Counted from the first letter of the stretch, positions 1,949 to 63,996 are shown. The stretch: DNA of 64,000 bases from Candidatus Falkowbacteria bacterium (GCA_018651725.1 JABIDK010000019.1:3894-67893); one strand, 5' to 3'. The notes: generated by a model from the letters alone, not told the origin. Translations and numbers: made by a program.

Positions 1949-1955
1949 AACACTT

Positions 1956-3785: not shown

Positions 3786-3866
3786 AAAATAATTTTATTT
3801 TCAAACAATACAAAAACTATATCTGTAAAGAATTTTATCTTATTATACATTTTATACATTCCAAAA

Positions 3867-21851: not shown

Positions 21852-23040
21852 ACATTACCCATTCCGGTTTTAAAATTAATAAAATTCCTAAAATTAAAAT
21901 TACAATTCCTCCGATTAAATTAGAGTAGCTACTATATTTTCCGTTTAGTCCAACGCTTTTTAGCGTTGTCATGGCAATAACAAAAATTAATAAATCATCA
22001 AGCAAGAAAATTAAAATATAAAGTAGCAAATATAGATAATATTTAAGTGGTGACAGGTCGGCCAGAACTAAAATCTGCGTATAAATTGCCGGCAGTCCGG
22101 CTGAACAAACCAGCTCAATCAAATTAACCGCAAAGGCTAAAACAATAATACCGGATAATGCCAGCCAAAATGATTTTTGTTCTGCAATCTCACGAAATTT
22201 ATCCATGATCTTTTGCTTCTGCCCAGGATTAGTAACTTTACAAGCTCCGCTTTTATTGGTATGCCATTCCTTTAAATGATACCCCCCGCTTGCAATTGCA
22301 ACCAGCCCGATAACAATTCTAACCGTTGCGATAACCCCTATAAATAAAAATAAATTCAGCCAAGCAGATAAAAATAAAAAATAAACTAAGGCCGAGGTTA
22401 CGATAAAAGAAGTTCCTAGAATCCACATTTTCTTTCTGTCTTTCATTCCCAAAAGTAAACTGATCAAGAAAAGAAGCACCCACATCGCACATGGATTAAA
22501 TCCATCTAGCGCCGCAATTACAATCGTAAGAAGTGGTAAAGAAAATGTTTTAGTGTTAACTTCTCCTAATAAAGGAAGATTGATCACATGAGCCTCTTCG
22601 TCCATTTTACAGACATCTTTCCCTGCTCCGTCGCCCTTTTTAACTTCTCCAACAAAATCATAACATCCGGTGATTTGATGTTCTTCAATTATATTTTTAA
22701 TTTTTGCACCGGTTGTTTTATCGTTCAAATAACCAACTACGGCTTCATCGCCAACGAGAAGGAAGGGCACGCCATACTCTTTAACCTCTAATTTTTTGGC
22801 GATATTTTGCAGTAGTTTCGCATTCTCTTTATTTTTATAGATCTCAAAGTATTTAATTTCTATATTAGGGAAATCATTTTGTAAATCAATTAAAAACTCT
22901 TTTTCCTTTTCACAGTGTGGACACCCGCTGCCATAAAACTGGGAAATATAAATAGTTTGATGATCCTCAGCTAAAGAAAAAGCGGGCATCAAAAAACAAC
23001 TAATAAGAAAAAATAAAATTAAAAATATTTTTTTAAACAT
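21844..23040 (-). CDS. Thiol:disulfide interchange protein: periplasmic thioredoxin domain fused to a CcdA/DsbD transmembrane domain
   Basis: Signal peptide, a CPHC active site (GSGCPHCEKEK) and a DsbD_2-like TM core with a conserved Cys (DGFNPCAMWVL). Confidence 0.65.
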   Translation of the reverse strand: MFKKIFLILFFLISCFLMPAFSLAEDHQTIYISQFYGSGCPHCEKEKEFLIDLQNDFPNIEIKYFEIYKNKENAKLLQNIAKKLEVKEYGVPFLLVGDEAVVGYLNDKTTGAKIKNIIEEHQITGCYDFVGEVKKGDGAGKDVCKMDEEAHVINLPLLGEVNTKTFSLPLLTIVIAALDGFNPCAMWVLLFLISLLLGMKDRKKMWILGTSFIVTSALVYFLFLSAWLNLFLFIGVIATVRIVIGLVAIASGGYHLKEWHTNKSGACKVTNPGQKQKIMDKFREIAEQKSFWLALSGIIVLAFAVNLIELVCSAGLPAIYTQILVLADLSPLKYYLYLLLYILIFLLDDLLIFVIAMTTLKSVGLNGKYSSYSNLIGGIVILILGILLILKPEWVMFG

Positions 23041-40600: not shown

Positions 40601-41710
40601 CTAGTTACAACCGCCGGTTGAGGCTGCGGCTGCTTCGCCTAATGTTTCGGAACATTCTTTTGGCTGAGTGTTAAAGGCGTTACAAATTCCTAGTTTGTAG
40701 TTTTCCGGAGCTCTGCCTCCGCTATATTTTACGCCGTTAATTACTAAGGCTGGAGAACCGGTAATACCGTATTTCTTATTTAGAGCTACTTCTTCTGCTA
40801 GCATTCCTATTGCTTCATCTTTTTGACAAGTTGCGATTTTTCCGGTATCGATACCAAGATCATCGGCTGGATTTGTCCAGCATTCTTCAATATTTTGGAT
40901 ATTACAATCTTTGTTAACTGCGTCGATATAGTCCCAAAATTTGCTTCTGTTGTATTTATAGATACAAAGCTCTCTGACGTTTTGATTCAATTCTTCGATT
41001 CCGTGCATTGAACAATATTTATCCTCTTCATCTAAACAATATTTTTCTCCACCGCCACGATAATCTGAGTAAATTACATAGTGAGGTTCAATCTCTACGC
41101 TATCACCAAGTAATCTGGCAACCGGTGAAATTCCGTCTTCGGCTTGATTACCAAATGGACAATAACTCATTGTAAATAACTCTACTTTTGGTGCATCTGC
41201 TTTTGGAACATCAGCTGCGGCAGGCGGAGGAGTGTTTTGTGCTTGTTTTTGTTCAGCTACTTTTTGTAAAATTTCTTCCATATCAATCGCGTCCGGTAAG
41301 AAAAATTTTCCGTCTTTACTTATATACAAAGTTGAAGTTGAAGTTTGATCGTTTGTGTTAGTGATAAGAGTGGTAACTGCGTAAACTCCGCTTTTTTCTT
41401 CTGTTTCCATAACCTCAATTCCTTTAACGCTTTGACCATAAGCCTCGTTAATAAAATCTGTTAATTTTTTCTGCGCTTCCTCAGCTGTTAATAACTCTTC
41501 TGTTGTTTTATCACCTCTTACAAGATCCATCATTTTACTGTTTTCAGTAACAAGCAAGGTGACGGCTATTAATAAAAAAATAACAGCAATAATCCAAAAA
41601 TAACCTGTGCTTTTTGTTTTTCTCTTTTTCGTAGAGACACGAGAAGTCTTTAATGACTTCAAAGATTTGTGTTCTGGCATAAAATAAACTAAATATAGCA
41701 AACCAATCAA
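40601..41710 (-). CDS. Membrane-anchored DsbA-like thioredoxin-fold protein
   Basis: N-terminal TM helix. CPFG redox motif (FTMSYCPFGNQ), with a DsbA-like GITGSPALVINGVKY near the C-terminus. Confidence 0.5.
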   Translation of the reverse strand: MIGLLYLVYFMPEHKSLKSLKTSRVSTKKRKTKSTGYFWIIAVIFLLIAVTLLVTENSKMMDLVRGDKTTEELLTAEEAQKKLTDFINEAYGQSVKGIEVMETEEKSGVYAVTTLITNTNDQTSTSTLYISKDGKFFLPDAIDMEEILQKVAEQKQAQNTPPPAAADVPKADAPKVELFTMSYCPFGNQAEDGISPVARLLGDSVEIEPHYVIYSDYRGGGEKYCLDEEDKYCSMHGIEELNQNVRELCIYKYNRSKFWDYIDAVNKDCNIQNIEECWTNPADDLGIDTGKIATCQKDEAIGMLAEEVALNKKYGITGSPALVINGVKYSGGRAPENYKLGICNAFNTQPKECSETLGEAAAASTGGCN

Positions 41711-51189: not shown

Positions 51190-53133
51190 CTACTCCACTA
51201 ATCCTCTCCCGCTTACCGTTGGGTCGTCTTCTATGTCGGTGGTTAGGGCTTTGTGAGTGTCTGCTAGCTGGGAGCCGGTTTTACTGTCGATTGCCTTTAG
51301 ATTGGTTTTATCAAGTAGGATTAGAATTTTATTTAAATCAGTTTCTTCAGGTGTAATGCTTATTTCAAAGTCTAAAGATGCTTTTTCTCCTGAATTTTCC
51401 AGATTTTCTATTTTCCATAAAACTTCTCTACTTTCTTCATTATACTCAATTTCGCCTAAGTTAGTGTTTATTTTTTCTGTCCAACTAACGTGGTCCGGTA
51501 ATTTTGCTTTCATCTCAACATTTTTAACTAAATGTAAATTTCCACCTACGCTCCAAAAAATTCTGTAGTGAGTTGTTTCTCCTACTTTAGGAGGAATTGG
51601 GCCGGAGCCAACCGCGATATTGTCGTTGTTAAAATAACGAGCCTCTGAACTGAGTTCAAGACTTGTGTTTATGTTCGCTATTATTTCATTGCTTTTCACT
51701 TTCAGCTCTACCTCTTCTTCGCCTACTTTTCCAATTTCTATTTCCGCCCAACTTTTTATTGTTAAATCTCCTCCTTTATAGTTAATATCAGACAAGGCTA
51801 CGACCGCTTCTTTTAAATCTACAAAAAAATCAATTACACCCTCTTCATTGGCTGAGAAAGAACTCAACTTAAGAATGTCCGCGCTGGTCCATAAAATTTC
51901 ACTTTCACTTCTGTGTCCTTTATTTTCTCCTTTTAAGCTCTCCCAGTCAAAAAGATTAACTTCTTTTTCCCCAACGTAAGCTTTAAGATAAGCTCTTAAT
52001 TTAATATTTTTCAAATCATCCTCTCCTTTATTTTCATAAATTATTGAGTAACTTAAATTATCTCCAAAATTAATTGCTTGATCGTTACCGGATCCATTTA
52101 AGATTAAATTTAACTCAACTTGCTTTTCTGTTGCCTTAACACTCAAAATATCCTCGGCTATTAAACTATATTCTCCATCTTTATTCCCAACTTCAATTCT
52201 AGCTGTGATATCTTGGCTATCTTCAACTTTATCACCAAAAACTCCTTTAATTTCAAATTTTTCTTCAGATCCCTTATCAAGCTTTTGGATTGTCCAGACA
52301 CTGTACTGAAAACCAAAAGGTATATCTTTAATTTCTTGATCTTTGTCGGGTTGAGTTGAAAAATCATCTGCAGAAAAATTTTCCGGATAAACAACAACAA
52401 GGCGCATATCTTCTATATTTTCTTCAGAGTTATTTTGAACCGTTACAATATATTCTGACTCTTTGTTTGGTAAAATTTGTTCTTGCCCCTCTACCTCAAG
52501 TACAATGGCTGCTGAAGTTATATTAGTTGAACCGGTAGCAAGTTCTTGAAACTCTGATGAAAAATTCTCAGGCTCATAAGAAAGTGAGGCTAAAACAGGC
52601 TTATCCTCGCCTTCTTTGCCTATTAAACGACCAATAACTTCAAGTTCGCCCTTGCCAAAGGCTTCTACATCTTCTAAATTAAAAACATTTTTATAGTCAT
52701 TTTCCGCCTCAATACTACTGGAATCAAAAATAAATCCCGATGGATAGCTGAGTAAAAGCTGTAATTTTGTCATCTTAACTTTATCACTGTTTTCATATTT
52801 AATTTTATAAATAACTTTTTCTCCGGAAGACACACTTTTCGGGCTTTCAATGCTCAAAACAATGCTTTTTGCAGGTTTTTTCTCATCATCTACTACCGGT
52901 TTATTAAATATCACCCAACCCACGATAAAAAAAATAGCTATCAAGAAAAAACAAGAAAATAAGCTGGTTAAAAACATTTTGAATCGACCTCTTGGTTTTT
53001 TCTCCAAATGACTCATATCAACCTCTTCTCCCTCCTCCTCATCGTAAATATCTGATAAATCATCTTTAATTTCTTTACTTTGGAAGTCTAATTCTTCTTC
53101 CTCATTTTTTGATTTTTTCTTAAATTTAAACAT
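51190..53133 (-). CDS. Membrane-anchored extracellular protein with repeated beta-sandwich (CARDB/DUF11-like) modules, hypothetical
   Basis: Acidic N-terminus, then a TM helix, then about 550 aa with periodic VxVxN motifs. Confidence 0.4.
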   Translation of the reverse strand: MFKFKKKSKNEEEELDFQSKEIKDDLSDIYDEEEGEEVDMSHLEKKPRGRFKMFLTSLFSCFFLIAIFFIVGWVIFNKPVVDDEKKPAKSIVLSIESPKSVSSGEKVIYKIKYENSDKVKMTKLQLLLSYPSGFIFDSSSIEAENDYKNVFNLEDVEAFGKGELEVIGRLIGKEGEDKPVLASLSYEPENFSSEFQELATGSTNITSAAIVLEVEGQEQILPNKESEYIVTVQNNSEENIEDMRLVVVYPENFSADDFSTQPDKDQEIKDIPFGFQYSVWTIQKLDKGSEEKFEIKGVFGDKVEDSQDITARIEVGNKDGEYSLIAEDILSVKATEKQVELNLILNGSGNDQAINFGDNLSYSIIYENKGEDDLKNIKLRAYLKAYVGEKEVNLFDWESLKGENKGHRSESEILWTSADILKLSSFSANEEGVIDFFVDLKEAVVALSDINYKGGDLTIKSWAEIEIGKVGEEEVELKVKSNEIIANINTSLELSSEARYFNNDNIAVGSGPIPPKVGETTHYRIFWSVGGNLHLVKNVEMKAKLPDHVSWTEKINTNLGEIEYNEESREVLWKIENLENSGEKASLDFEISITPEETDLNKILILLDKTNLKAIDSKTGSQLADTHKALTTDIEDDPTVSGRGLVE

Positions 53134-53168: not shown

Positions 53169-56090
53169 CTATTTCAATATATATCCGAATAATTTATCTG
53201 TGTTCAGTATTCCGGAAAATTCTTTTTTGGTTTTGTTAGTCCAAATTATCTCTGAGTTATCAGCTGCTTTTAAGGTGTGGTAAAAATAAGAGTTTATTCC
53301 GGCTTGTTTTTGCGCTAAAATAGTATACATTTTCCTATCAAGTTTAAACGGTAATTTGTACTCTATTTCAATAACTTCTTCTTCTCCAACATCGATCATC
53401 GACCAATTAGCTAAAATTGTTTTTTCAAATTGATCGTAGATATAAGTGCCGGACTGATCGTGAACCTTAAAACCACCTTCAAGTCTGGCTAAATCACTAT
53501 CTATTTCTAACTCTCCTTCCGGCTTTGGAAAATATTTTCCCTCTAACTCGTCAAATCCTCTTGCGCTAAGAAGCTCTGTTCCTTTTGGCAAATAAATTCT
53601 CATCCAGTTAAGATTACGGGCTTTTTGAAAATAATCTTTTGGATCACCGTTATGTGTTCTTTTTATAGTTAAATTATTTATAACTGAACCATCTTCTTGA
53701 ACTTCAGTTTTCAGGTCTATAACCTGAGAGATTACTCCGTCTGTTTTTCCTCCGGCGATATTAGTATTTACAACCATTAAATAATCAAGTGGGGTATCTT
53801 TAATTTCTCCGCTTAAAGAATATTTTTTAATAAGTTCCTGCATTTTTTGATCAGTAAAAAACAACTGCAAGTCTTTTTCTTTTACTATTTTATCCAAAGA
53901 GCCAAAAATATTAGCAAACCCACTTGAACTTTTTAAATCACCGGAATCGCTCCACAACTTATCAAAAATCTTGACGCATAAATCAGCTAAAAACTTTTTT
54001 GGTTTGTTTTCTGCTTTATCGTACTCCAACTCAACGTTATACTCTGCTACCCACATAAAGTTTTCCACAGTTACTATTTCGTTATATTCTGTCATTTCAA
54101 TCGGACCGGTTATTTTAAGAAGTTCTATCAGCACCTCCGGAGTAATCGCGATTACACCATCCACAGTCGGCCCTCCGCTTAACTCATAAAATTGCATCAA
54201 CTTTTTAGCTGAGCTTGGAAAATCAGGCCACCAGTTAGCGTCATGAAACTGCCAAAGAGGGGAAACCAAATACATTGGCTCCGGAGCGCTAATTCTTTTT
54301 GTTAAGCCGCCTTGCAGATTGTAACTTCCATCTTCAGGAAACTCTATATTTTTTATTTTTCCTTTGTTTATATCAAAAAGAGCAAAACTGCCGATAAATC
54401 CACCGGTTGCTCGAAGTTCATAGTTATTTTGAAAAACAATTAAATATCTCTTAAAACTGTCTTTACCTAAAAACTGCAACCAAAAATCCATTATTCCATT
54501 AAAATTTTGAAGCGAAGAAATAAAAACAGGCAAAAACTCTTTAAGCTTTATAAGTTTATCTTTGTCGTTTTCAGGCAATATATCCAAATTTATTTTAGAA
54601 AGATTATTTTCAGCTTCCTGTATTTTTTTCTTGGCCTGAGAAACATTTTCTTGAACTTTATTTATTTTTTCAAAAAAATCATCTCCCAGATTGATTGCTT
54701 TTACCTCTCTATTGTTAAATGTAATCAAGTCTTGGTTAAAACCGTTTTCTTTATCTAAAATTTCCTCTAAAGCCTTGTTTAAAAATACAGCTGCCTCACT
54801 AATGTTTTCCCCAAAAGATATAAGGTTTTTTCCAGCCAAAACTCTTCCTTCGTCAAACGGTACTTCTTGCAAAATTTTCAAAACTAAAGAATTTGTTTTC
54901 TGCAACTCTTCCTTGGCTAAATGAAAATTATTAAGCGACTCGGAAAAATAATAGTTAGCTTGCTCTAAATCGTTGGATAAAACAGACTCTCCACCAAGCT
55001 TTAACTGCTCCAAAGCTGTAGTGGTTTCTCCCAGAACTTTACCTTTTTTGTGGTAATTGGCGTTGTATAAAAATATTGCCTCAAACGGCAGAACCAACAC
55101 AAAGCAAACTATTAAGAAAAAAACAAAAGACCGCTTCCACTCTAAAGGAAAAGAAAATTTAAACATCCATGGTATTTTTCCTCTAGTTAACGAAGATAAG
55201 TCAATGAAAAAATTCTCAAGCCCAACCCACAAACTGTAAACAGGGAAAAACAAAGTTCTTAAAAATCCAATTTTATTCTGAAAATGCTCCTCTGTGATAA
55301 TCTCTTCTAACTTAGCAAAATTTACTTTAACTGTTTTTGGCTTTGCTTTTTTCTCTTGTTTTGTAAATTTTAAAGACCTAAAACTATTTTTTTCAGCCAA
55401 GGACTGATCAGCCTTTGGCTGGTTCTTTTTAGGGGTAGGGGTTTTGAAAAATCTTCTTTCTTTCTTAATTAAACCTTTTATCTCGTTAGTATTTTTTTCG
55501 CGTAAATCAACTAAATGAGGGGACTTCTTAAGTCCAGAAAGATCGTATTCAATCTCTATATTTTCTTGATCATTATTTTTACTTTCTTTCAAAGGGGCAA
55601 TATCTATTTTATCTTGAACAAAATCTTCTTTGCTTTCTTCCTTAGCTATTTTTTCAATCTGACCCAGGTCACCTTCTCTTCCTCCGGAATTTATCATGCC
55701 CCTGTGGTACACCTTGTCTTTTTCAGCCCCTCCCTTAATCAAACTATCCTCACGAACAAAGAACCTTCCGGTCTTATAAACACCAAAGACATCTTTTGAT
55801 AAACTCTCAGAGATCTCTTTAAAATGTATCCAATCAGCTTTTTTAGGCTTCTTTTTAATTTTTTTATTATCAACTAAAGTGCTTACTTTCTTTTTCGGTT
55901 TTTTAATCACTGTTTTTTTAACTGTTTTCTTCTTAATTACCTGTTTCTTAGGTTTTTTGACCACGCCCTTAACAACCTTTTTTGTAACTTTTTTCAAAGA
56001 AGGTTTTTTGATGGTTTTCTTTTTTCTACCTGCTTTATTTGCGCTAACATTGCGGGCAGGTATTTTTTTATTTTTTTGTTTTACAGCCAT
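53169..56090 (-). CDS. Large membrane protein with a cytoplasmic lysine-rich N-terminus, a single TM helix and a ~650-aa extracytoplasmic domain. Tentatively DUF4012-like.
   Basis: The N-terminal 70 aa are K-rich and similar to the RpoD N-terminus (KKIPARN...). TM at ~FVFFLIVCFVLVLPF. Conserved-looking ELRATGGFIGSFAL motif. Confidence 0.5.
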   Translation of the reverse strand: MAVKQKNKKIPARNVSANKAGRKKKTIKKPSLKKVTKKVVKGVVKKPKKQVIKKKTVKKTVIKKPKKKVSTLVDNKKIKKKPKKADWIHFKEISESLSKDVFGVYKTGRFFVREDSLIKGGAEKDKVYHRGMINSGGREGDLGQIEKIAKEESKEDFVQDKIDIAPLKESKNNDQENIEIEYDLSGLKKSPHLVDLREKNTNEIKGLIKKERRFFKTPTPKKNQPKADQSLAEKNSFRSLKFTKQEKKAKPKTVKVNFAKLEEIITEEHFQNKIGFLRTLFFPVYSLWVGLENFFIDLSSLTRGKIPWMFKFSFPLEWKRSFVFFLIVCFVLVLPFEAIFLYNANYHKKGKVLGETTTALEQLKLGGESVLSNDLEQANYYFSESLNNFHLAKEELQKTNSLVLKILQEVPFDEGRVLAGKNLISFGENISEAAVFLNKALEEILDKENGFNQDLITFNNREVKAINLGDDFFEKINKVQENVSQAKKKIQEAENNLSKINLDILPENDKDKLIKLKEFLPVFISSLQNFNGIMDFWLQFLGKDSFKRYLIVFQNNYELRATGGFIGSFALFDINKGKIKNIEFPEDGSYNLQGGLTKRISAPEPMYLVSPLWQFHDANWWPDFPSSAKKLMQFYELSGGPTVDGVIAITPEVLIELLKITGPIEMTEYNEIVTVENFMWVAEYNVELEYDKAENKPKKFLADLCVKIFDKLWSDSGDLKSSSGFANIFGSLDKIVKEKDLQLFFTDQKMQELIKKYSLSGEIKDTPLDYLMVVNTNIAGGKTDGVISQVIDLKTEVQEDGSVINNLTIKRTHNGDPKDYFQKARNLNWMRIYLPKGTELLSARGFDELEGKYFPKPEGELEIDSDLARLEGGFKVHDQSGTYIYDQFEKTILANWSMIDVGEEEVIEIEYKLPFKLDRKMYTILAQKQAGINSYFYHTLKAADNSEIIWTNKTKKEFSGILNTDKLFGYILK

Positions 56091-56245: not shown

Positions 56246-57382
56246 TTACTTCTTTCGGATAGTTGTTACCAACAATACTCCGACTATTATTGCTACTAGC
56301 CCCATGCCGACCCAGGGTAGCCAGGGTTTGTTTTCGGTTATTCTGCTTTCTTGGTTGTCGCAAGCGTCTCCGATTTGGTCGTTGTCAATGTCACTCTGGG
56401 CGGAATTTGGTTTATCAGGACAGTTGTCTTTACTGTTTATTACGCCATCCAAATCAAAATCATCGCAGGCGTCTCCTCGTTTGTTATTATTTATATCGGT
56501 TTGTTTTGGATTTGGTGTTTTAACACAATTATCAATTTCATCCGGAACTCCATCTTTGTCAATATCGGCTTTTATGTATGTTGGATTATTTTTATTGACT
56601 GGATTAATTTTTAGAACCTCCTCCGGATTTCTTAAATTTCCCGATTCACTGACTGTAATATTAGGAATTCTATCCGGGTTAAAATAAATTTTATAATCCA
56701 TACCCGGTCTTGCCAAAAATCTAAGCCCGCTGGTAATTTCTCTTTGCTTTAATACTTCTTGACGCAATTCAAGCTCGGTAATGCGAAGTGGTTGTGAGTA
56801 TTCCAAGTAAATATTCCAAGTCGAAGCAGTAGTCTTAGGAAAATACACGCGCCTACCTCTCATTTTACTCTTGGCCAGAACAATATTTTCTCTAGCACCT
56901 TCTTGTGTTGTTATTTTAATGGATGTTGGAAGCGCTACATAATTATCCAATTGAATCACGAGCGAAGACGAGGTTATAGACTTATTACCTTTTATTACAA
57001 TTTTAGTTGAACCGTTGCCGTTATCAGGCAAAGAATATTCTGTAAAAGTCTTATTGTTTTCATCGATTAAATATTGATTAATTCCTTTTTGATGATTACT
57101 AAAAATGCTAATATTTGCCAATCCTCCTATCGCTATATTCTTACTTGAATTATAAAAATAATTTGGCTGAAAGTCGTCACCTACCTCAAGAACAGCGAAA
57201 TTTTTATTCTCAAGATAATCACTGTTAAATAAAACCTCAACAACTGTTGGAATTTTTATATCCAGACCTTCAACAACTTTAAATTCTTTATAAGCTTGCA
57301 AAATATCATCATTACTTTGAGCAGAAACAGAAAAAGAAAACAAAAAAACACTAATAATTAATAATAAAAATGATTTTTTCAT
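56246..57382 (-). CDS. Secreted protein with thrombospondin type-3 calcium-binding repeats and a C-terminal TM helix plus RKK anchor
   Basis: Signal peptide MKKSFLLLIISVFLFSFSVSA. TSP3 repeats: DIDKDGVPDEIDNC, GDACDDFDLDGVINSKDNCPD, DIDNDQIGDACD. C-terminus ...PWLPWVGMGLVAIIVGVLLVTTIRKK. Confidence 0.6.
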   Translation of the reverse strand: MKKSFLLLIISVFLFSFSVSAQSNDDILQAYKEFKVVEGLDIKIPTVVEVLFNSDYLENKNFAVLEVGDDFQPNYFYNSSKNIAIGGLANISIFSNHQKGINQYLIDENNKTFTEYSLPDNGNGSTKIVIKGNKSITSSSLVIQLDNYVALPTSIKITTQEGARENIVLAKSKMRGRRVYFPKTTASTWNIYLEYSQPLRITELELRQEVLKQREITSGLRFLARPGMDYKIYFNPDRIPNITVSESGNLRNPEEVLKINPVNKNNPTYIKADIDKDGVPDEIDNCVKTPNPKQTDINNNKRGDACDDFDLDGVINSKDNCPDKPNSAQSDIDNDQIGDACDNQESRITENKPWLPWVGMGLVAIIVGVLLVTTIRKK

Positions 57383-57386
57383 AGTT

Positions 57387-59081
57387 TTAATCGCGCTTTC
57401 GCATAAAAGCGGTACTAATAAATAAGGCTCCTATCAAAAAGAAAGTGAAGATCTTTCCTGTAATATTCATTCCCCAAACTTCAACGAATAATAATCGAAT
57501 TGTCACAAGCCCGAATAATATTTCGCCTGTAATACGATATGCTGTTATATCTCTTAATTTCCCGGCAATATAAAAATAAATACCAACTATAGTATAAATC
57601 GCCAAAGATATCATAGTAGCGAAATTATAAGTTAAAATAGCGTGCAGACTAAGCCAAACAATGGCTAAGGCATAAAAGCCACAAAGAGTAAACAAGACGA
57701 TTGTTATGTTTAACTCAGGCTTTCTGCTTAATTCTTCTGATTTTCTTTTTATGTAGAAATATATTCCAAGAAACAACAAAGCAATTGACAAAATAAGAAG
57801 CACGAAAAAATCACTATGTAAGACACTGCTTTGCCACACGCGAGCAGTAAGACTTTCAATTGACAACATTATTGGAACAGCGAACAAAAGACTAACAGCT
57901 TGAGCCGATCTATAGTCTTTAGAAAGATAAGCGGTTAAATAACTTATAATTCCCACCTCGATTGTGTAGGCAATAGTAAGAGCATTTCCGGAAAGCTCAA
58001 AGGCAGTAGCAGCAGCCAACATAATTACGGAAATTCCACTATAAACATACATTGGTTCTTTTAATTTAGTTGTCTTAAAAACAATAAAAGCGCCTAAAAC
58101 GAAAAATAAAGCGATCCCAACGGTTACAAGGCTTTTCCATTCGTCTGAGACAAGATCATTAATCCATACCAAAAGCAATAATCCGCTTGCTCCGATAACT
58201 ATTAAATCTGATTTTGTTGATTCTTTAGTAGAAATAATAGTTGCCAAGCTAACAGCATAATAAAGCAAAGTGTAAAGAAGAACAAAAAACAGTGCTATCA
58301 TTACATTTTCAACTCCACCCATTAAGTACGGGAAACTATAAACAGCTACCAAGCCAAGTGAAATTGGCGACAAAACTCTCCAGCCAGTAGCACCAACTAC
58401 CCACAGAGTACCGGCTGAAAGTAAAAATAAATAAGAAAACAATCCAAACGCGTCCGGACTTGAATTAGTAAGAAGCGGAGCTATACCACCGAGCGCAACA
58501 CTTAAAATTGCTAAAGGTAAACTTTTATTTTTAATACTTGAAATCGCTATAAAAACAACCACCATCGCCATTAATAAAAGAGCTGTAAGCGGAGTAAAAA
58601 AATCATAAATTTCTCGAGCCGCAAAAACAGTTAGCAAAATAACAGCTGAACCAAGAGCTAAAAACACGCTTCCTTGATTTTTAAATGATTTTATTCTCCA
58701 TTCGCCCAGCAAAAGAATTCCAAGTCCGGCTACAAGTCCAAGAGTAATTCTACCCTTCGGTCCGATCCAGTTATTCATAAAAGCATAACTTACCAGCCAA
58801 CCAAATCCAAGCAATATCAAAAATGCTCCCAACTTCATCGGCCAATCAGTTACAATCCAAGAAACAAAAGCCGATGGCTTTTGTTCTTCCAAAGGAATAG
58901 CTATCTCTTCCTGAACATTATCTGCCTGAAGATCATCCAAATCCAGTGATTTTATAGCTTTTGACTTAATAGCAGAAGGAATAACTTTTTCTTCTCCCTT
59001 TAATAATTTCTCTAAACGAGAAACCTTTTGGGCCAGTATAATACAAAAAATAATAGCCCCAATCGACAAAAAAATACTCAT
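57387..59081 (-). CDS. Polytopic integral membrane protein (about 14 TM) of unknown function, 4 nt downstream of the TSP3 protein gene
   Basis: Hydrophobicity pattern only. No catalytic motif recognised. Confidence 0.4.
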   Translation of the reverse strand: MSIFLSIGAIIFCIILAQKVSRLEKLLKGEEKVIPSAIKSKAIKSLDLDDLQADNVQEEIAIPLEEQKPSAFVSWIVTDWPMKLGAFLILLGFGWLVSYAFMNNWIGPKGRITLGLVAGLGILLLGEWRIKSFKNQGSVFLALGSAVILLTVFAAREIYDFFTPLTALLLMAMVVVFIAISSIKNKSLPLAILSVALGGIAPLLTNSSPDAFGLFSYLFLLSAGTLWVVGATGWRVLSPISLGLVAVYSFPYLMGGVENVMIALFFVLLYTLLYYAVSLATIISTKESTKSDLIVIGASGLLLLVWINDLVSDEWKSLVTVGIALFFVLGAFIVFKTTKLKEPMYVYSGISVIMLAAATAFELSGNALTIAYTIEVGIISYLTAYLSKDYRSAQAVSLLFAVPIMLSIESLTARVWQSSVLHSDFFVLLILSIALLFLGIYFYIKRKSEELSRKPELNITIVLFTLCGFYALAIVWLSLHAILTYNFATMISLAIYTIVGIYFYIAGKLRDITAYRITGEILFGLVTIRLLFVEVWGMNITGKIFTFFLIGALFISTAFMRKRD

Positions 59082-59130
59082 AGGTTTTGTATGGTTAAAT
59101 TAAGTTATTTGCTTTAATAATATCATATTT

Positions 59131-59856
59131 TCAATGATTAACAAAATTGTCTTTTATTCTATCTTTTAAAACCAGCCAAGAAAAAACAACAACCGCTGTT
59201 AAAATTCTCTTTATTCTCTTCGGCTCTTGGATTAAGCGCCAAAGCCACTCTATGCCTAAAATCCTCATTATTTTGGGGGCACGCTTGATTTTTCCTGTTA
59301 GAAAATCAAAGCTGCCACCTACTCCCATAGCTACTTTTACAGACGATATTTTAGCTAGATTATGATAAATAAATTTCTCTTGTCTTGGCGCACCGAGTGC
59401 TACCAAAAGAATTTGGGCATCAGTTTGCCGAGTTTGTCGAGGTTCAACCTCGCTAAATACGTTGAATTTTAAATTTGGATATTTTTTTTCTAAAACAAAC
59501 CTTATTTCTTCATTACTGGAAAATTGCTTTTCGTGGTTTAAAATACAAACTTTATAACTCTCTTTTTCAGCTAAACGTAAAATATCTTTGGTTAAATCAG
59601 CTCCGCTGATACGATTTTTAATAATCGGGGGAAACAAAAAAGAAGCCAATTTTACACCAAAACCATCCGTTAAAGATAAATCAGCCTTATTTAAAATATG
59701 AAAAAATTCCTCATTATTTTGGGCCTTAACCAAAAACTCCGGATTAACAGTTGTAATGTAATGTTGTTTACTAGAAATTAAAAACTCTTTAATCTTTTCT
59801 AAGACTTTTTCTTTTGACAGATTATCGATTTTTACGCCTAAAATTTTAATTGACAT
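59131..59856 (-). CDS. WecB/TagA/CpsF-family glycosyltransferase (GT26; N-acetylmannosaminyltransferase-like)
   Basis: N-terminal ILGVKIDNLS...HYITTVNPEF, a central LLVALGAPRQEKFI motif, and the family length. Confidence 0.8.
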   Translation of the reverse strand: MSIKILGVKIDNLSKEKVLEKIKEFLISSKQHYITTVNPEFLVKAQNNEEFFHILNKADLSLTDGFGVKLASFLFPPIIKNRISGADLTKDILRLAEKESYKVCILNHEKQFSSNEEIRFVLEKKYPNLKFNVFSEVEPRQTRQTDAQILLVALGAPRQEKFIYHNLAKISSVKVAMGVGGSFDFLTGKIKRAPKIMRILGIEWLWRLIQEPKRIKRILTAVVVFSWLVLKDRIKDNFVNH

Positions 59857-59895
59857 ATGTAGTATTCTAACATATTAACAGTTATGTTTGCAAAC

Positions 59896-59925
59896 AAAAG
59901 AGCCCGTCTTAGACGGGCTCTTTTT
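59896..59925 (-). terminator. Rho-independent terminator downstream of the 1350-aa surface-protein gene
   Basis: aaaaGAGCCCGTCttaGACGGGCTCttttt: 9-bp GC-rich stem plus a T-run on both strands. Confidence 0.75.
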
Positions 59926-59943
59926 ATTATAACTCTTTATTTT

Positions 59944-62900
59944 CTATTGTCTAAAATTAGTTTGTCCTTCGTTGGAATCTGTTGGTTTTTCGTTCTTTCC
60001 TCTTAAGCGATAATTTTCATAGGCGAAGTAACCTGTTACTAAAAGAAGTAAAACTATTAACCACCACCAATTTTGCCAACAACCGCAGGTGCTACAGGTG
60101 CTTGAAGCATTACATTCATCCGTATAACAAACTTTATCGTTTTTTGTTTCTTTATCCCCTTGATCTTCTTCGCCAGCTTTCACCTGTTCTCCTAACACTT
60201 CTCCATCGACTGCTTGGACACCTGAACCAATAGCCCCTTCTTCTTGAGCTACTGCTTGCAGATCACCTTCCTGTTGCTCTTCACCATTTGAATTTGTAGA
60301 CCCTTCGATCTCTTGAGAAGAAGTTGATTGCCCTTCTTGTTCTTCTACTTCTTCTATTGCACAAGTAGAGCTACAGCCATCTCCGCTTAATATGTTTTGA
60401 TCGTCACACTCTTCAGCACCCTCTAAAACACCGTCTCCGCATAGAGTTTCAGTTTCTATTTTATAAAGACATACTTTTTGAATATCAACACTATTTGGTA
60501 GTGTTTCCGGTGGACATTGAGTAGCAGTATCCATTATAATCGTATTTTCACCTTTGTAGAAAATAAAGTCTCCGGTAAGTTGAGTTCGCATTTCTTCGTC
60601 ACCAGGTCTGTCAAAGATAATGTCGCTTTGTTTTCCGTTTATACTAAAGGTAAAATTTTCAGCTGGTTGAGTTTCTTCCAGACCGCTTCTGTGAACTTCA
60701 GCGTAAACATTGTATAAACCGGTTTCAAGAATAGAAACGATTTCTGTGTCTTGATTTTGGTAAACTGTCCAACCTGATAATTGGCAGTTTTCACCGATAA
60801 CCTTTAAAGTTGTGTCAAAGATATAATCTGCTCCAGCACAACCTTCAGTTTTACATTCACTATCGCATCCGTCACCAGAGATATTATTACCATCGTCACA
60901 GTCTTCTTCCGCGTCTACTGTTCCGTCTCCGCAAACAGGTGTACAAGAGTTGGTAGTGAAAAACACTTCATCACTAAATACCTCGCTGCTATAAGTGGAA
61001 ATCGCTCGACAGTAGTATCCTGTGGATTGGTTTAATCCGGTTACATTTACGCTATGAAAAGTTACTTGACTCAAATCTTTTTCCGTTGAAAAATCATAAC
61101 CAAGATCCGGCCAAGCACCAAGTGGGTCTGACGGACTTAGTCCGCAAACAACTCGACTGGTAGCGTTTCTATTTGTGTGCCAAGTAATAGTGGCGTTATC
61201 ACATCCCGGAGCAGCTGCTTCAGAATGAATATAAAGAGATACAGGGCCTCCGCCGCCTCCGCCACCTCCGCCGCCGCCACCACAATCGGTGGTTTTATTG
61301 GCGTCGTTATCATCACAGTCAACTGGTCCACAGTCACCACCCTCTTGGGCGTAACCATCACCATCGTTATCGGTACAAGTTGGACCGGGGCAAGAATCAT
61401 CGTAACCATCACAATCCTCATCTATTTCATTGCCACAAATTTCTTCTTGAGGTTCGATTGCACCTTCACACTCTCCCCATGCTCCAAGTGAACAAATTTG
61501 AGTTCCAAACTCACAAGCGCCAACATCGGTTGAACCGCATTGTCTGGTCTCTCCTTCCTCACACTCTTCAATCTCTGTAAAATAATTTCCAAAGTTAACT
61601 ATTTTATTATCTCCATTAACACTAACTTGAATAGGATTCCCGGTTGTGTTGGTCCAATTTTCCTTTAGAATCTCCGCAACCGTGTAATCTCCAGTTGATA
61701 GTCCGTAAAAACAATATCCGTTTTCTCCGGTTATCTCTGAAGTGTCTTCTTCACCTGGGTTTAAATGAATTGTCCAGTCTGTTAAGTTATCTTCTCCGTC
61801 ATCCCAAATACCATCTTGGTCCAAATCTTCAAACTTATTACCACAGATACTTCCTAAGCACTCTTCCAATAAAGCAGAAGAATAATCTGTATAATATCCA
61901 TCGTCAGCCACATTAACGGTTAACCAAAAATGAGAGTAGTTATCTGCACCATCAAGCCAAACTTCATCGTCTCCGGCACTATTCTTTGTGCCATCGTTAT
62001 CATTATAACCTCCAACCTCTGAGTCTTGCTCTAAAGTATTGTTTCCTGAATTATCGTTTCGCAAGTGAGTAGGGGAAGCGTTATAAAATTCAATATAACC
62101 GTCTAAATGTTCAAGATCTGCTCCGGTTGGATTGGTGCCGTGTAAAACAACACGAACACTACCGTTTAACCTTTGAACAGCCAAACCAGGGACATTTTCA
62201 TATCCTAAAATATCGGTATCTTCAATATAAATACCGTTCTCAACAAGAGGAAACCATTCACCAGACTCATAGATATTATCCGGAGAACCAACATAAATTT
62301 GATTTGTAGAGGTAGCATTTCCTTCGCTTGAATAGTTATCCACAACTACTCTAGCCATTATTAAATCACAATTTTCTTGTTCACAAGTCGCATTACAACC
62401 ATCACCGTTTTCTGTATTTCCGTCATCACACTCTTCGTTGTCGTCAACTACTTCATCTCCACAATAAGATGAAACTTGCTCGAAAAAAGCACATATCGGC
62501 TCTAAACTATTAGGATTAGTATAGTCAGGATAAAACGCATGGTTAGCAATCACTTCATTAACATCACCACTAACAACCAATAAATTATTAACAACATTAA
62601 TCTCTGAAGCATAAATAACATTATCTTCTAAATCATCTGTTATTCCTGACTTTGCTACAAACTGACTATTATTTTGCAATATAACTTCATATTGTTCATT
62701 TGGCTGAAAACTAGTTACCCTTGTTGGTTTACCATCAAAAGCAGCTAATGTAACTTTATAGTTACCTGCTGGGATAAAAGAATTTACTAACTCTTGATAT
62801 TCATCATCTCTACTTGAAAATATTTTTTCAGTAAAATCAACAACATATGATTCTCCTTCAACTGCAATAAATGGACAATCTATTCTGGTAATTTCACACT

Positions 62901-63996
62901 CACTACTACACCCATCACCATCTTCTGTATTACCGTCGTCACATTCCTCATCTCCCTCTAAAATTCCGTTTCCGCACCCCGGAAGTTCAATGACACAGTT
63001 AGCACTACATCCGTCGCCATCTGTTTGATTACCGTCGTCACACTCTTCGGGCCCGTTAGTAATATAGTCACCGCAATATTCTTCAGGGATACATTCTCCC
63101 CAAGCACAATCAGTACAAACTTTATGACCATTGTATCCGGTATATCCGTCACCGGTTACACACGATTCCGCGCAAGAACAATCACATTCTTCGCCATCTT
63201 CTACAATGTAGTTACCGCAAATAGGTTCTTCGATAGTACAGTTAGCGCTACAACCATCACCGTCTATTTGATTACCATCATCACACTCTTCATCTCCTTC
63301 AACAGCTCCATCACCGCAAACCGGGCCGCAATCACCGCAAGTGCACTGATTTTCAGCTCCCGGAGTACCAAATTCCACTGCTCCAGAATCCCAATTTACT
63401 TGAGCCGAAGCTGTACACCAATTATCTGCTAAAGCACCGTTACCTGGATCTTGAAGTCTGGACATTGCTTTTTTCGGACTAACGTTATCGCCTTCAAAAG
63501 GAACACCGCCATCACCGGCTGTATCGATTAAAATACCGCTGTCGTCCCAATCTCCATTACAATATAATTTTACCTGAAGTTGAGTATTTAATAAATTAAC
63601 TGCTGTATTAACTAAATCAGGAGTGATTCCAATTTTTGAACTAGCTTCATCGTAATTCGCAATTAAAAAGAAATCATTTGCTCCTATTATTTTAGAAGCG
63701 GGAATTTCAAGCATCAAAACTTCACTACCCGACATTCTTGTTAATTGACAACCATCCAAATTAAGTGCTTCTCCGGTTGTGTTTCTAAGTTCAATCCACT
63801 CATCAGCCATAGAAGATGAGCTCCCCGACCACATTAACTCATTTATTACAACCTCGCCAACAGTAGGTGTTGCTATTTCGCTGGCACTGGCTGAACTGGC
63901 GATTATTAAATTAAATGGAAAAGCTATGAGTATCATTAGAAAATAATACAAGGCTTTTTTTGTTGTCCCTCCATTTTTTAGTGTTGTGTGTTTCAT
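59944..63996 (-). CDS. Giant (1350 aa) secreted protein with an N-terminal lamin-tail domain (LTD), at least 5 Myxococcus-type cysteine-rich repeats, a Gly12 linker and a C-terminal Cys/Trp motif plus TM plus basic tail
   Basis: Signal peptide. LTD (VVINELMWSGSSSSMADEWIELRN). Repeats of form CGDGxVEGDEECDDGNxxDGDGCSxxC. GGGGGGGGGGGG run. C-terminus ...CSTCGCWQNWWWLIVLLLLVTGYFAYENYRLRGK. GC is ~42%. Confidence 0.6.
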   Translation of the reverse strand: MKHTTLKNGGTTKKALYYFLMILIAFPFNLIIASSASASEIATPTVGEVVINELMWSGSSSSMADEWIELRNTTGEALNLDGCQLTRMSGSEVLMLEIPASKIIGANDFFLIANYDEASSKIGITPDLVNTAVNLLNTQLQVKLYCNGDWDDSGILIDTAGDGGVPFEGDNVSPKKAMSRLQDPGNGALADNWCTASAQVNWDSGAVEFGTPGAENQCTCGDCGPVCGDGAVEGDEECDDGNQIDGDGCSANCTIEEPICGNYIVEDGEECDCSCAESCVTGDGYTGYNGHKVCTDCAWGECIPEEYCGDYITNGPEECDDGNQTDGDGCSANCVIELPGCGNGILEGDEECDDGNTEDGDGCSSECEITRIDCPFIAVEGESYVVDFTEKIFSSRDDEYQELVNSFIPAGNYKVTLAAFDGKPTRVTSFQPNEQYEVILQNNSQFVAKSGITDDLEDNVIYASEINVVNNLLVVSGDVNEVIANHAFYPDYTNPNSLEPICAFFEQVSSYCGDEVVDDNEECDDGNTENGDGCNATCEQENCDLIMARVVVDNYSSEGNATSTNQIYVGSPDNIYESGEWFPLVENGIYIEDTDILGYENVPGLAVQRLNGSVRVVLHGTNPTGADLEHLDGYIEFYNASPTHLRNDNSGNNTLEQDSEVGGYNDNDGTKNSAGDDEVWLDGADNYSHFWLTVNVADDGYYTDYSSALLEECLGSICGNKFEDLDQDGIWDDGEDNLTDWTIHLNPGEEDTSEITGENGYCFYGLSTGDYTVAEILKENWTNTTGNPIQVSVNGDNKIVNFGNYFTEIEECEEGETRQCGSTDVGACEFGTQICSLGAWGECEGAIEPQEEICGNEIDEDCDGYDDSCPGPTCTDNDGDGYAQEGGDCGPVDCDDNDANKTTDCGGGGGGGGGGGGPVSLYIHSEAAAPGCDNATITWHTNRNATSRVVCGLSPSDPLGAWPDLGYDFSTEKDLSQVTFHSVNVTGLNQSTGYYCRAISTYSSEVFSDEVFFTTNSCTPVCGDGTVDAEEDCDDGNNISGDGCDSECKTEGCAGADYIFDTTLKVIGENCQLSGWTVYQNQDTEIVSILETGLYNVYAEVHRSGLEETQPAENFTFSINGKQSDIIFDRPGDEEMRTQLTGDFIFYKGENTIIMDTATQCPPETLPNSVDIQKVCLYKIETETLCGDGVLEGAEECDDQNILSGDGCSSTCAIEEVEEQEGQSTSSQEIEGSTNSNGEEQQEGDLQAVAQEEGAIGSGVQAVDGEVLGEQVKAGEEDQGDKETKNDKVCYTDECNASSTCSTCGCWQNWWWLIVLLLLVTGYFAYENYRLRGKNEKPTDSNEGQTNFRQ
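61246..61283. repeat. Imperfect (GGN)12 trinucleotide repeat encoding a Gly12 run within the giant surface-protein gene
   Basis: The plus strand is cctccgccgcctccgccacctccgccgccgccaccaca. Confidence 0.8.

Follow-up and report, generated by a model that had tools for sequence, protein, structure and literature searches.

A conserved two-gene membrane module of a DUF2339 protein and an anchored partner in Patescibacteria

The window analyzed here is a stretch of 64,000 nucleotides from Candidatus Falkowbacteria bacterium (GCA_018651725.1 JABIDK010000019.1:3894-67893); about 69 kb of the source genome was covered. Four open reading frames (ORFs) that had been predicted in its last part from the sequence alone were verified at their coordinates, all on the minus strand. 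These ORFs and their features are as follows:

57387..59081, minus strand: DUF2339 / Arc3A-family polytopic membrane protein, 564 aa (PF10101), first gene of the pair
56246..57382, minus strand: partner (TSP3) protein, 378 aa, type I membrane-anchored, second gene of the pair
56675..57295, minus strand: partner ectodomain, residues ~30-236, CBM32 / F5-8 type C (galactose-binding-like) beta-sandwich (AlphaFold and Foldseek)
56348..56590, minus strand: thrombospondin type 3 (TSP3) repeats of the partner, Ca2+-binding, Asp-rich, residues ~265-345 (Pfam TSP_3)
56252..56350, minus strand: partner juxtamembrane motif 'ESRITE..W[LI]PW.G', C-terminal transmembrane (TM) helix (355-377) and RKK end (alignment and model)
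59131..59856, minus strand: WecG/TagA/CpsF-family glycosyltransferase, 241 aa (Pfam, TIGR00696), neighbor only
59944..63996, minus strand: giant surface protein, 1350 aa, with LTD and Cys-rich repeats, neighbor only
60019-60069, minus strand: C-terminal TM helix of the giant protein, residues ~1310-1326

The original prediction treated these genes as a surface-protein sorting module in which two exported proteins with similar C-terminal tails flank a membrane-bound processing enzyme. The two C-terminal sequences quoted for it are letter-exact and both hydrophobic tails are real. The domain calls were upheld by Pfam and NCBIfam scores: TSP_3 at 58 bits in the partner, Glyco_tran_WecG at 136 bits and TIGR00696 at 119 bits in the TagA-family enzyme, and LTD at 44.5 bits with six DUF4215/TIGR02232 cysteine-rich repeats at 164 bits in the giant protein. 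By inspection, both exported proteins have Sec-type signal peptides ('SVSA-QS' and 'ASA-SE'), and only these 2 of the 53 window ORFs have a signal-peptide-like N-terminus together with one TM helix at the C-terminus. In a crude scan, 5 of 707 ORFs of at least 150 aa that flank the module in other Patescibacteria had a signal peptide as well as a TM helix at the C-terminus. At this base rate of ~0.7%, one extra such protein among ~50 genes is statistically unremarkable.

Comparison across genomes separates the TSP3 protein from the other neighbors. In the window, the partner starts 4 nt past the stop codon of the DUF2339 gene. Among 80 genomes from distinct species, 76 of which gave informative loci, the partner lies directly downstream of DUF2339 in 71 and is fused to it in 3, for a total of 74 of 76, with a median intergenic gap of 3 nt. 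No third conserved neighbor of the pair was found, the best flanking family occurring at 10 of 80 loci in scattered positions. The giant protein adjoins DUF2339 in 0 of 80 other genomes, and none of them encodes a TagA homolog within 10 kb on either side of DUF2339. The predicted co-occurrence of the membrane protein with tailed proteins therefore stands for the TSP3 partner, for which fusions add to the evidence, and fails for the giant protein. Fusions of DUF2339 and the partner occur in at least three lineages, one fused clade having diverged to 70-80% identity, and lengths of 926-988 aa are found in 6 of the best 150 partner clusters. The fusion proteins P0043 and P0089 are collinear with the two genes and retain the signal-peptide-like segment and the tail. 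By inspection, the DUF2339 C-terminus (RKRD) and the partner N-terminus (MKK) are both cytoplasmic, so fusion is topologically consistent. The conserved unit across Patescibacteria is thus a two-gene membrane module, consisting of DUF2339 and its anchored partner, and the pairing at 74 of 76 loci and the natural fusions support a functional coupling of the two proteins.

The 564-aa protein is a member of the DUF2339, or Arc3A, family. It matches PF10101 in two stretches at 146.4 bits (cutoff 33.6 bits, E 1.8e-42), and the same family was present in 120 of 120 among the DUF2339 homologs listed. We found 453 homologs of this protein, nearly all of them in Patescibacteria. A profile of these homologs (A1) aligned with Arc3A of Burkholderia arboris at E 1.6e-20, residues 80-446 of the Patescibacteria protein corresponding to Arc3A 394-767 and residues 497-563 to Arc3A 1229-1296. 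The B. arboris protein itself scores 602 bits to PF10101, and a DUF3999 gene directly follows its gene. The AlphaFold model of the 564-aa protein (pLDDT 81) is all-helical, with one N-terminal TM helix and a core of ~18 membrane-length helices, or ~19 in total; a hydropathy scan gave 16 TM segments. The 14 TM helices counted originally were too few. Such a high number and density of TM helices is in keeping with the Arc3A family. Residues ~31-68 form a disordered cytoplasmic linker, and the C-terminus is inside.

None of these properties identifies the DUF2339 protein as a sortase-, exosortase-, rhombosortase- or CPBP-like processing enzyme, the role for which its position had suggested it. 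A Foldseek search of the model against the PDB gave no fold match (best E 0.07, TM <= 0.34), so that the model matches neither rhomboid, Rce1/CPBP and sortase nor any other solved peptidase. There is no conserved Cys column among 38 aligned DUF2339 sequences, and the alignment of the Patescibacteria proteins with B. arboris Arc3A contains no polar nucleophile or nucleophile motif common to both; at least R156 of the Patescibacteria protein is not conserved in B. arboris Arc3A. A CPBP identity was rejected on the lack of a Pfam CPBP match, of an EExxxR-type motif (by inspection) and of an Rce1 fold. An exosortase, archaeosortase or rhombosortase identity was rejected in the same way, there being no Pfam or NCBIfam match to these families, no conserved Cys and no rhomboid fold match. 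Among the window's membrane proteins, none was identified as a CPBP protein, sortase, rhomboid or exosortase.

The partner is represented by 717 full-length homologs in Patescibacteria. Across very diverse classes of this group it is unusually uniform, at 43-56% identity and 370-430 aa. Its AlphaFold model (pLDDT 85) has a high-confidence helix at residues 355-377. When the ectodomain was searched against the PDB with Foldseek, it matched CBM32 and F5/8C domains at E 2e-6, with ~135 aligned residues and an rmsd of ~3-3.7 A. The D/N/C columns of the TSP3 repeats are invariant in the partner alignment (A2), and a match of the protein to NF047638 (MtsC) covers the TSP3 repeats only, at 71 bits against a cutoff of 350 bits. 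DUF3999 proteins, which take the corresponding gene position in B. arboris, match the same type of domain: 8 of 26 match F5_F8_type_C (PF00754; best E 1.2e-5) and 10 of 26 match F5_F8_type_C_2 (PF22633). In B. arboris, this protein also begins with a signal peptide, and a basic end follows its C-terminal TM helix. The partner ectodomain and DUF3999 belong to the same fold class, which does not in itself prove common descent. Homology between the two was not detected at the sequence level, as PF13163 (DUF3999) matched 0 of 35 partner homologs at E <= 1, and hhalign of partner alignments A2 or A3 against the DUF3999 alignment A4 gave probabilities of 0.6% and 0.1%. What supports the parallel with the DUF3999 protein Arc3B is therefore limited to the position of the gene, the architecture and the fold class.

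The tail of the partner is conserved in a manner that suggests an anchor rather than a signal. Residues E345, R347, E350, W354, P356, W357 and G359 are invariant or nearly so in A2, and the juxtamembrane motif is kept in 117 of 120 homologs. In the window, its flank and the 80 loci, an HMM of the tail matched no proteins other than partner orthologs. That this tail motif is private to the partner family, that the TM segment carries nearly invariant G359 and L370, and that the segment after the TM helix varies from 0 to 40 aa across homologs, with acidic distal tails, all argue for an anchor. Conservation of the motif and of parts of the helix beyond the need of a generic anchor suggests specific helix packing with DUF2339. 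The LPXTG anchor model TIGR01167 scored 15.3 bits on the tail, below its cutoff of 15.9 bits. Only profile positions 9-33 aligned, which correspond to the TM helix and basic part and leave the LPXTG positions outside, and position 4 of the partner 'LPWxG' is V, A, L or I, with Thr in 3 of 117 homologs. A sortase signal of the LPXTG type was rejected on this evidence.

One could still propose that the pair is dedicated to sorting a single substrate, with DUF2339 as a new intramembrane enzyme that cleaves or transfers the partner at 'ESRxTE..W[LI]PW.G'. The strict co-occurrence resembles that of an enzyme and its substrate, a short conserved motif lies right before the TM helix with K/R after it, the TIGR01167 score comes close to its cutoff, and polar residues S182, S317, H422, E362 and E375 of DUF2339 are conserved within Patescibacteria. 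However, DUF2339 has neither a conserved Cys nor a nucleophile motif in common with B. arboris Arc3A, its model matches no rhomboid, Rce1/CPBP, sortase or other solved structure, and the authors who described Arc3A likewise saw no residues pointing to enzymatic activity (PMC8926400). The near match to TIGR01167 excludes the LPXTG part and Thr is rare at position 4, post-TM tails of up to 40 aa with acidic ends are unlike known sorting signals, and stable fusions of the supposed enzyme and its substrate have outlasted sequence divergence. We therefore regard a dedicated sorting pair as very improbable.

The tail of the giant protein has a different character. This protein consists of a signal peptide, an LTD, six Cys-rich acidic repeats, an SdrD_B/prealbumin-like domain, an FN3-like domain, a poly-Gly run, an acidic stalk, the C-terminal TM helix and a 24-aa cytoplasmic end. 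The partner-tail HMM had no match in its tail even at E <= 10, which is contrary to the proposed shared signature; what the two tails share is limited to a TM helix, a W-rich interface and K/R residues. A resemblance to MYXO-CTERM had also been proposed, but neither tail scored above cutoff for this or any other NCBIfam sorting-signal model. For the giant tail, no NCBIfam sorting-signal model gave a match at E <= 10, the MYXO-CTERM, JDVT, Synerg and CGP models included, assuming that release 20.0 contains these and bearing in mind that HMMER filters may hide very weak matches. The RLRGK cluster is followed by 16 residues, instead of the ~20 non-basic residues described previously, and a MYXO-CTERM-type signal was rejected on these two grounds.

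A true sorting signal in the giant tail (CSTCGC, TM helix, RLRGK), processed independently of DUF2339 by an enzyme, CPBP/myxosortase-like or not, whose gene lies elsewhere in the genome, is an unlikely alternative that has some points in its favor. The tail is tripartite with Cys just before the helix, as in the general pattern of Cys-containing signals (bioRxiv 10.1101/2023.06.07.544157; PMC11980579), and another protein with DUF4215 repeats (L087/L088) ends in a sortase-like 'TPETG', followed by a TM helix and RKR. Against this alternative, known signals end at the Arg cluster and genomes with these systems carry many such tails (PMC11980579), whereas residues continue beyond the cluster here and one such tail was seen. 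In addition, no sorting model matched, none of the enzymes listed above is present among the window membrane proteins, and no ortholog of the giant protein with the same tail was found. Given that the giant protein is not a neighbor of DUF2339 elsewhere and that its tail is unrelated to that of the partner, it does not belong to the module. The giant LTD/Cys-repeat protein and TagA are better explained as chance neighbors that adjoin the pair in this lineage only. The former would be an independent membrane-anchored surface protein, and TagA probably a general enzyme of envelope glycopolymers.

A lateral origin had been suggested on the basis of a GC content of ~42-48% for the block against a background of ~30%. 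Three of the four genes are at background level (TSP3 protein 0.344, DUF2339 0.356 and TagA 0.321, compared to 0.343 +/- 0.028 for 30 other window genes and 0.337 for the whole window). The giant gene alone exceeds this level (0.399) and reaches a local maximum of 0.488 in a 500-bp stretch over the poly-Gly run. Its GC3 of 0.257 is at or below the background of 0.281, so the excess is confined to codon positions 1 and 2 and does not support transfer. This excess reflects the Gly-, Asp-, Glu- and Cys-rich composition of the protein. In this locus, neither lateral transfer nor a new system of protein sorting is backed by evidence, and both were false leads.

On balance, it is somewhat more probable than not that the pair represents, in Patescibacteria, a variant of an envelope complex like Arc3A/Arc3B whose C-terminal anchor is permanent. 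The unit would be the two-gene cassette at 56246-59081 on the minus strand, with translational coupling of the partner. The ectodomain of the partner would be outside the cell, as a CBM32/F5-8C-like sandwich followed by Ca-binding TSP3 repeats, and the juxtamembrane motif and C-terminal TM helix would keep the protein in the membrane. The natural fusions suggest that DUF2339 and the partner most likely form a stable membrane complex, in which the C-terminal helix would be a permanent stop-transfer anchor, probably packed on DUF2339, and not a cleaved sorting signal. By analogy to Arc3A/Arc3B, the complex probably acts at the outer leaflet of the cytoplasmic membrane, where its task may be, for example, limiting phospholipase or lysophospholipid damage or handling such lipids. 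In Pseudomonas, Arc3A prevents lysophospholipid accumulation and is required for protection against phospholipase toxins, namely the lipase effectors Tle3, TseL and Tle1; the experimental evidence comes from this genus only (PMC8926400; bioRxiv 10.1101/2024.10.26.620397).

The fold of the partner also fits a different role. One could envision a host-attachment or receptor complex in which the CBM32-like domain and TSP3 repeats bind a glycan or a host or environmental surface, DUF2339 serves as platform or transducer, and lipid defense plays no part. Glycans are the usual ligands of CBM32-like domains, and such binding fits adhesion or reception no less than it fits lipid handling. Patescibacteria live largely as episymbionts and make contact with their hosts through surface proteins, and the pair is as tightly conserved as the Arc3-like reading would have it. 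However, F5/8C domains also bind phospholipid head groups, and the partner is uniform in length and sequence, while host-specific adhesins usually diversify. The only experimental data on DUF2339 concern defense against lipid toxins (PMC8926400; bioRxiv 10.1101/2024.10.26.620397). We consider an attachment role somewhat unlikely, though with a real chance of being correct.

The Arc3-like reading bears on a wider question, as Arc3A/DUF2339 is among the most widespread bacterial membrane-protein families with a mechanism still to be found. Patescibacteria reportedly rely on external sources of membrane lipids, and the pair is a conserved, putative candidate for envelope lipid handling in this group. 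In these bacteria, a minimal DUF2339 is tightly coupled to a partner of another kind, in some cases as a fusion. The layout and fold class that this partner has in common with Arc3B suggest that the DUF2339 family in general could require a single-pass partner with a lectin-like ectodomain. We speculate, while considering it rather doubtful, that a streamlined Arc3-type machine, made of a half-size DUF2339 and a lineage-specific replacement of Arc3B, may be core to coping with or exploiting host lysophospholipids or lipases. Such a machine would serve lipid-auxotrophic episymbionts at their single membrane, and its small size and natural single-chain fusions would make it the most tractable system for the mechanism of the Arc3A family. 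The fusions could in any case provide small constructs for structural work. A more novel variant, in which DUF2339 proteins would be intramembrane enzymes of a new class with the conserved juxtamembrane motif of the partner as their target, is less likely.

Among known systems, the closest to the pair is Arc3A/Arc3B of Pseudomonas aeruginosa (PA5114/PA5113; DUF2339 and DUF3999), whose products co-immunoprecipitate in both directions (Ting et al. 2022, eLife, PMC8926400). In both cases, the upstream gene encodes a homologous DUF2339 polytopic protein. The downstream gene follows it immediately, in the same orientation, and encodes a protein with an N-terminal export signal, a beta-rich F5/8C-type ectodomain, one C-terminal TM helix and a basic end. 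Both are self-contained cassettes in variable genomic contexts. They differ in that the Patescibacteria DUF2339 is minimal, with ~19 TM helices in 564 aa compared to ~35 in Arc3A, and lacks a central block of ~460 residues relative to the B. arboris ORF of ~1316 aa, whose start is approximate. The Patescibacteria partner carries TSP3 Ca-binding repeats and the private 'ESRxTE..W[LI]PW.G' motif. Arc3B is a predicted outer-membrane lipoprotein, with relatives reported as confined to Gram-negative phyla (PMC8926400), while the partner has no such destination, as Patescibacteria lack an outer membrane. Full two-gene fusions are found in Patescibacteria, unlike in the Arc3A/Arc3B system.

Resemblance to sorting systems is more superficial. 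Like LPXTG/sortase substrates (TIGR01167), the partner is an exported protein with an 'LP..G' motif, a hydrophobic helix and a K/R end, in an organism with a Gram-positive-like envelope. Unlike them, it scores below cutoff without aligned LPXTG positions, lacks the scissile-position Thr in 114 of 117 homologs, and has a motif that is not set apart from the TM helix but serves as its N-cap. Its tail is also private to one family, with a cytoplasmic end that can be long and acidic, and there is no sortase among the scanned window proteins. The giant protein shares Myxococcota-type Cys-rich acidic repeats (TIGR02232), Cys residues just before the C-terminal TM helix and subsequent basic residues with substrates of CPBP-type myxosortases that bear MYXO-CTERM and other Cys-containing signals (Haft 2023, bioRxiv 10.1101/2023.06.07.544157; Guo, Haft & Wall 2025, PMC11980579). 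It differs from them in matching no NCBIfam sorting model, in the extra residues after the basic cluster, in being a single instance here rather than one of dozens, and in having DUF2339 as the adjacent membrane protein, with no CPBP protease nearby. The source organism also lacks both an outer membrane and a type II secretion route. Ordinary type I membrane proteins offer a simpler comparison, as both tails obey the positive-inside rule and have a Trp belt at the outer interface. Compared to such ordinary anchors, the juxtamembrane motif and parts of the helix of the partner are far more conserved.

Four same-strand ORFs occupy positions 56246-63996 of the minus strand, and the coordinates and C-terminal sequences quoted for them in the original prediction are correct.

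56246-57382 (-), 378-aa protein with TSP_3 repeats (the TSP3 or partner protein)
57387-59081 (-), 564-aa membrane protein, Pfam DUF2339 (146 bits against a 33.6-bit cutoff)
59131-59856 (-), 241-aa WecG/TagA/CpsF glycosyltransferase (TagA)
59944-63996 (-), 1350-aa giant protein carrying an LTD domain along with six DUF4215/TIGR02232 acidic Cys-rich repeats; SdrD_B and FN3-like domains match more weakly

The 564-aa protein, described previously as being of unknown function, therefore belongs to a known family. It had been proposed that the two large exported proteins are substrates of a surface-protein sorting system in which this membrane protein is the candidate processing enzyme. The observation is confirmed in part. 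Most of the interpretation is unsupported, although the membrane protein and the TSP3 protein are indeed linked.

Homologs of the DUF2339 protein (453 at E < 1e-5) and of the TSP3 protein (717 at E <= 1e-3) form full-length families that are found across many Patescibacteria lineages, often on shared contigs, and the module locus itself was seen again in many samples, on contigs up to 275 kb. A search of one genome per species yielded 80 loci, in which ORFs were called and compared with phmmer and hmmsearch. The TSP3 protein is encoded directly downstream of DUF2339 on the same strand at 71 of these and is fused to it in frame at three, and four contigs stop before the partner position; the sole informative loci at which it is absent are L032, where a convergent 1158-aa gene follows DUF2339, and L046, where parA/parB-like genes follow. 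The intergenic gap has a median of 3 nt and is 4 nt in the window. Co-occurrence thus establishes that the link between the two genes is real. When all flanking ORFs of the 80 loci were clustered, no third conserved gene was found at a fixed position, the best family being present, scattered, at 10 of the 80. Directly downstream of the module are genes for a 973-aa DUF4012 protein (53169-56090, minus strand) and for a protein of 647 aa that has a single transmembrane (TM) helix at its N-terminus (51190-53133, minus strand). The same two genes adjoin the DUF2339 pair in a Magasanikbacteria genome (L072), but upstream, and the 647-aa family is also present in L048; this may be a lineage-specific linkage.

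The fusion proteins P0043 (960 aa) and P0089 (968 aa) consist of DUF2339 followed collinearly by the whole partner, and they still contain the tail and what was once the signal-peptide segment. Among the best 150 partner clusters (50% identity), six are 926-988 aa long. The fusions span at least three lineages, and identity within one fused clade has fallen to 70-80%, indicating that the fused state is stable. The predicted topology is consistent with fusion, as judged by inspection: the even number of core helices leaves the DUF2339 C-terminus (RKRD) in the cytoplasm, and the partner starts with an in-to-out helix. Two further proteins, P0163 (532 aa) and P0169 (518 aa), carry TSP_3 and DUF2339 annotations at intermediate lengths, and P0488 (595 aa) carries DUF3999 and DUF2339; these three could reflect partial fusions, gene calls that overlap, or contigs that are truncated.

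The proposal that the C-terminal tails of the TSP3 and giant proteins represent one sorting signal is contradicted by several results. All that the tails have in common is an interface rich in Trp, a hydrophobic helix, and cytoplasmic-side K/R, which is simply the positive-inside rule of a type I anchor. Scanning both tails against NCBIfam (E <= 10) reported no sorting-signal model (MYXO-CTERM, PEP-CTERM, GlyGly-CTERM, or other Cys-containing signals) for either, assuming that release 20.0 includes them. The nearest match, TIGR01167 (LPXTG_anchor) on the TSP3 protein, scored 15.3 bits, below the 15.9-bit cutoff, and aligned over profile positions 9-33, the TM and basic part, leaving LPXTG uncovered; the remaining matches were irrelevant. 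An HMM of the TSP3 tail, run with every filter off, matched the TSP3 protein alone within the window and its flank, and did not match the giant protein's tail at E <= 10. The tail does recur, with 78 matches in ~1.3 Mb of other Patescibacteria DNA, but all are orthologs of the TSP3 protein. In a crude scan, a signal peptide together with a C-terminal TM helix was found in five of 707 flanking ORFs of at least 150 aa, and one extra protein of this kind among ~50 genes is unremarkable. A second surface protein with Ca repeats that ends in the membrane is encoded in the window (452 aa; 23033-24391, minus strand). In it, a CAP (cysteine-rich secretory protein) domain and bacterial TSP3 repeats precede two hydrophobic stretches at the very C-terminus; the tail HMM did not find the partner's motif in this protein. 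Elsewhere in the window, a 369-aa protein (40601-41710, minus strand) has an unusual combination of a weak EndoU-nuclease-like match and a thioredoxin/DsbA-like domain, with one N-terminal TM helix.

Neither the giant protein nor TagA travels with the pair, as homologs of either were found within 10 kb on each side of DUF2339 at none of the 80 loci. A metagenome scan with the last 170 aa of the giant protein matched only the DUF4215 repeat and recovered no ortholog with its Cys-containing tail. The most plausible reading of the giant protein is that of a type I anchored surface protein in its own right. TagA belongs with the window's other envelope-glycan genes, which encode a Wzy_C-like protein, GT4, and GT2. 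Just beyond the window's high end, upstream of the giant gene and on the opposite strand (L001, positions 1-4556), are three more genes. One encodes a UDP-glucose/GDP-mannose dehydrogenase, the next a 919-aa protein in which GT2 and LysM domains are joined to a NosD/beta-helix domain, and the third another beta-helix protein; this is an envelope-polysaccharide neighborhood. In other metagenomes (L087 1-3540 and L088 808-7023), a DUF4215-repeat protein of more than 2000 aa ends in ...KTPETGPGGIIIVIALSGMAASAFRKRMK..., a layout of an LPXTG-like (xPETG) motif, TM helix, and basic cluster. Judging from such sequences, related repeat proteins appear to use sortase-type tails elsewhere.

Lateral origin of the block had also been suggested from a raised GC content, and we find no compositional sign of it. 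The TSP3 (0.344), DUF2339 (0.356), and TagA (0.321) genes are at the background of 30 other window genes (0.343 +/- 0.028). The giant gene has a GC of 0.399 and a GC3 of 0.257, compared to a background GC3 of 0.281, so its excess is confined to codon positions 1 and 2 and results from the amino acid composition of the protein (11% Gly, 9% Asp, 10% Glu, and 5% Cys). Within this gene, at ~61100-61600, 12 successive Gly codons and the surrounding Cys/Gly-rich segment form a local GC peak of 0.488, which probably prompted the earlier idea. A promoter and terminator scan, to which we give no weight as evidence, yielded consensus-level matches only, among them one 11/12 promoter-like site between the giant gene and TagA, and no minus-strand terminator.

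In the AlphaFold model of the DUF2339 protein (pLDDT 81, pTM 0.69), a disordered linker (residues 31-68) connects one N-terminal helix to ~18 membrane-length helices. Foldseek found no significant match in the PDB (best E 0.07, TM <= 0.34); the nearest shapes, themselves non-significant, were designed helical barrels or toroids and TPR solenoids, and rhomboid, Rce1/CPBP, sortase, transporter, and GT-C folds were not among the matches. Polar residues conserved within Patescibacteria are R111, R129, R156, S182, S317, E362, E375, and H422, whereas the alignment of 38 homologs has no conserved Cys column. The protein also has an invariant loop, YAF.NNWIGP.GR, on its outer face.

In the partner model (pLDDT 85), the signal peptide is followed by a beta-sandwich (~30-236), Asp-rich TSP3 loops (~265-345), short helices, and finally a confidently modelled TM helix at 355-377. 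The sandwich resembles CBM32 and F5/8 type C domains (E 2e-6, ~135 residues, rmsd ~3-3.7 A). In the partner alignment, E345, R347, E350, P356, and W357 are invariant and W354, G359, and L370 nearly so, and the juxtamembrane motif ESRxTE..W[LI]PW.G is found in 117 of 120 homologs. Position 4 of its "LPWxG" portion is V, A, L, or I, with Thr in just three of the 117, and the stretch beyond the helix varies from 0 to 40 aa and is acidic where long. All this is more in keeping with a packed anchor helix under conservation than with a sorting signal that is discarded. What is left of the enzyme-substrate idea is a variant of low probability, limited to the DUF2339-partner pair.

A known system offers a closer parallel. 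In Pseudomonas, the DUF2339 protein Arc3A prevents build-up of lysophosphatidylethanolamine and monolysocardiolipin, is without residues indicative of enzymatic activity, and co-immunoprecipitates with the neighbor-encoded Arc3B (PA5113, DUF3999), which carries a lipoprotein signal at its N-terminus and a TM helix at its C-terminus and whose relatives were reported to be confined to Gram-negative phyla (PMC8926400). A later study confirmed that the family protects against TseL and Tle1 (bioRxiv 10.1101/2024.10.26.620397). If P0488 is real, Arc3A-Arc3B fusions would exist in Proteobacteria too. The sole mention of the family in Patescibacteria that we found in the literature is a 32-TM DUF2339 protein, with function unassigned, in a Gracilibacterium (PMC6851277). 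The window also encodes an 889-aa exported protein (7521-10190, minus strand) with CarboxypepD_reg-like and LCAT/lipase-type alpha/beta hydrolase domains (LCAT E 1.3e-25); a secreted lipase or acyltransferase that shares a genome with an Arc3A-like module may be relevant to lipid scavenging or self-protection.

As a comparator we used a genuine Arc3A/Arc3B locus on a Burkholderia arboris chromid (NZ_CP101525.1; L086 4795-10100), obtained as the one weak match (E 0.3) in a tblastn search of DUF2339 against a plasmid collection. There, the DUF2339 gene (602 bits) is directly followed by a DUF3999 gene (355 bits), whose product has a signal peptide and ends in ...RRYVLWGALVVAVGVLGTIAWRLAKGG...; this stretch has no annotated feature in the collection's table, and an SLT lytic transglycosylase gene is just downstream. 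The Patescibacteria DUF2339 profile aligns with B. arboris Arc3A at E 1.6e-20 (residues 80-446 with 394-767, and 497-563 with 1229-1296), which makes the Patescibacteria protein a minimal Arc3A without the central block of ~460 residues. Shared positions are mainly Gly, aromatics, and a few Arg, with no shared nucleophile in the alignment.

No homology of the partner to Arc3B was detected: hhalign against a DUF3999 alignment from Burkholderia and Paraburkholderia gave probabilities of 0.6% and 0.1% for two partner profiles. No PF13163 match was found among 35 partner members by Pfam, or among the best 150 of the 593 clusters from an ectodomain profile search of 1.84 billion representatives; all 150 had the same architecture or were fusions. 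Matches to F5_F8_type_C and F5_F8_type_C_2 are present in eight and 10 of 26 DUF3999 proteins, respectively.

By analogy, our analysis supports the presence in Patescibacteria of a conserved DUF2339-partner membrane module that would work like Arc3A/Arc3B. From the fusions, the conservation, and the Pseudomonas data, we infer that the two proteins may form a complex, that the anchor is probably retained, and that the role could be lipid related. The Patescibacteria pair is best seen as a variant of this known system. Although common ancestry with Arc3B is undemonstrated by sequence, profile-profile comparison being negative, the partner is like Arc3B in gene position, membrane topology, and ectodomain fold class.
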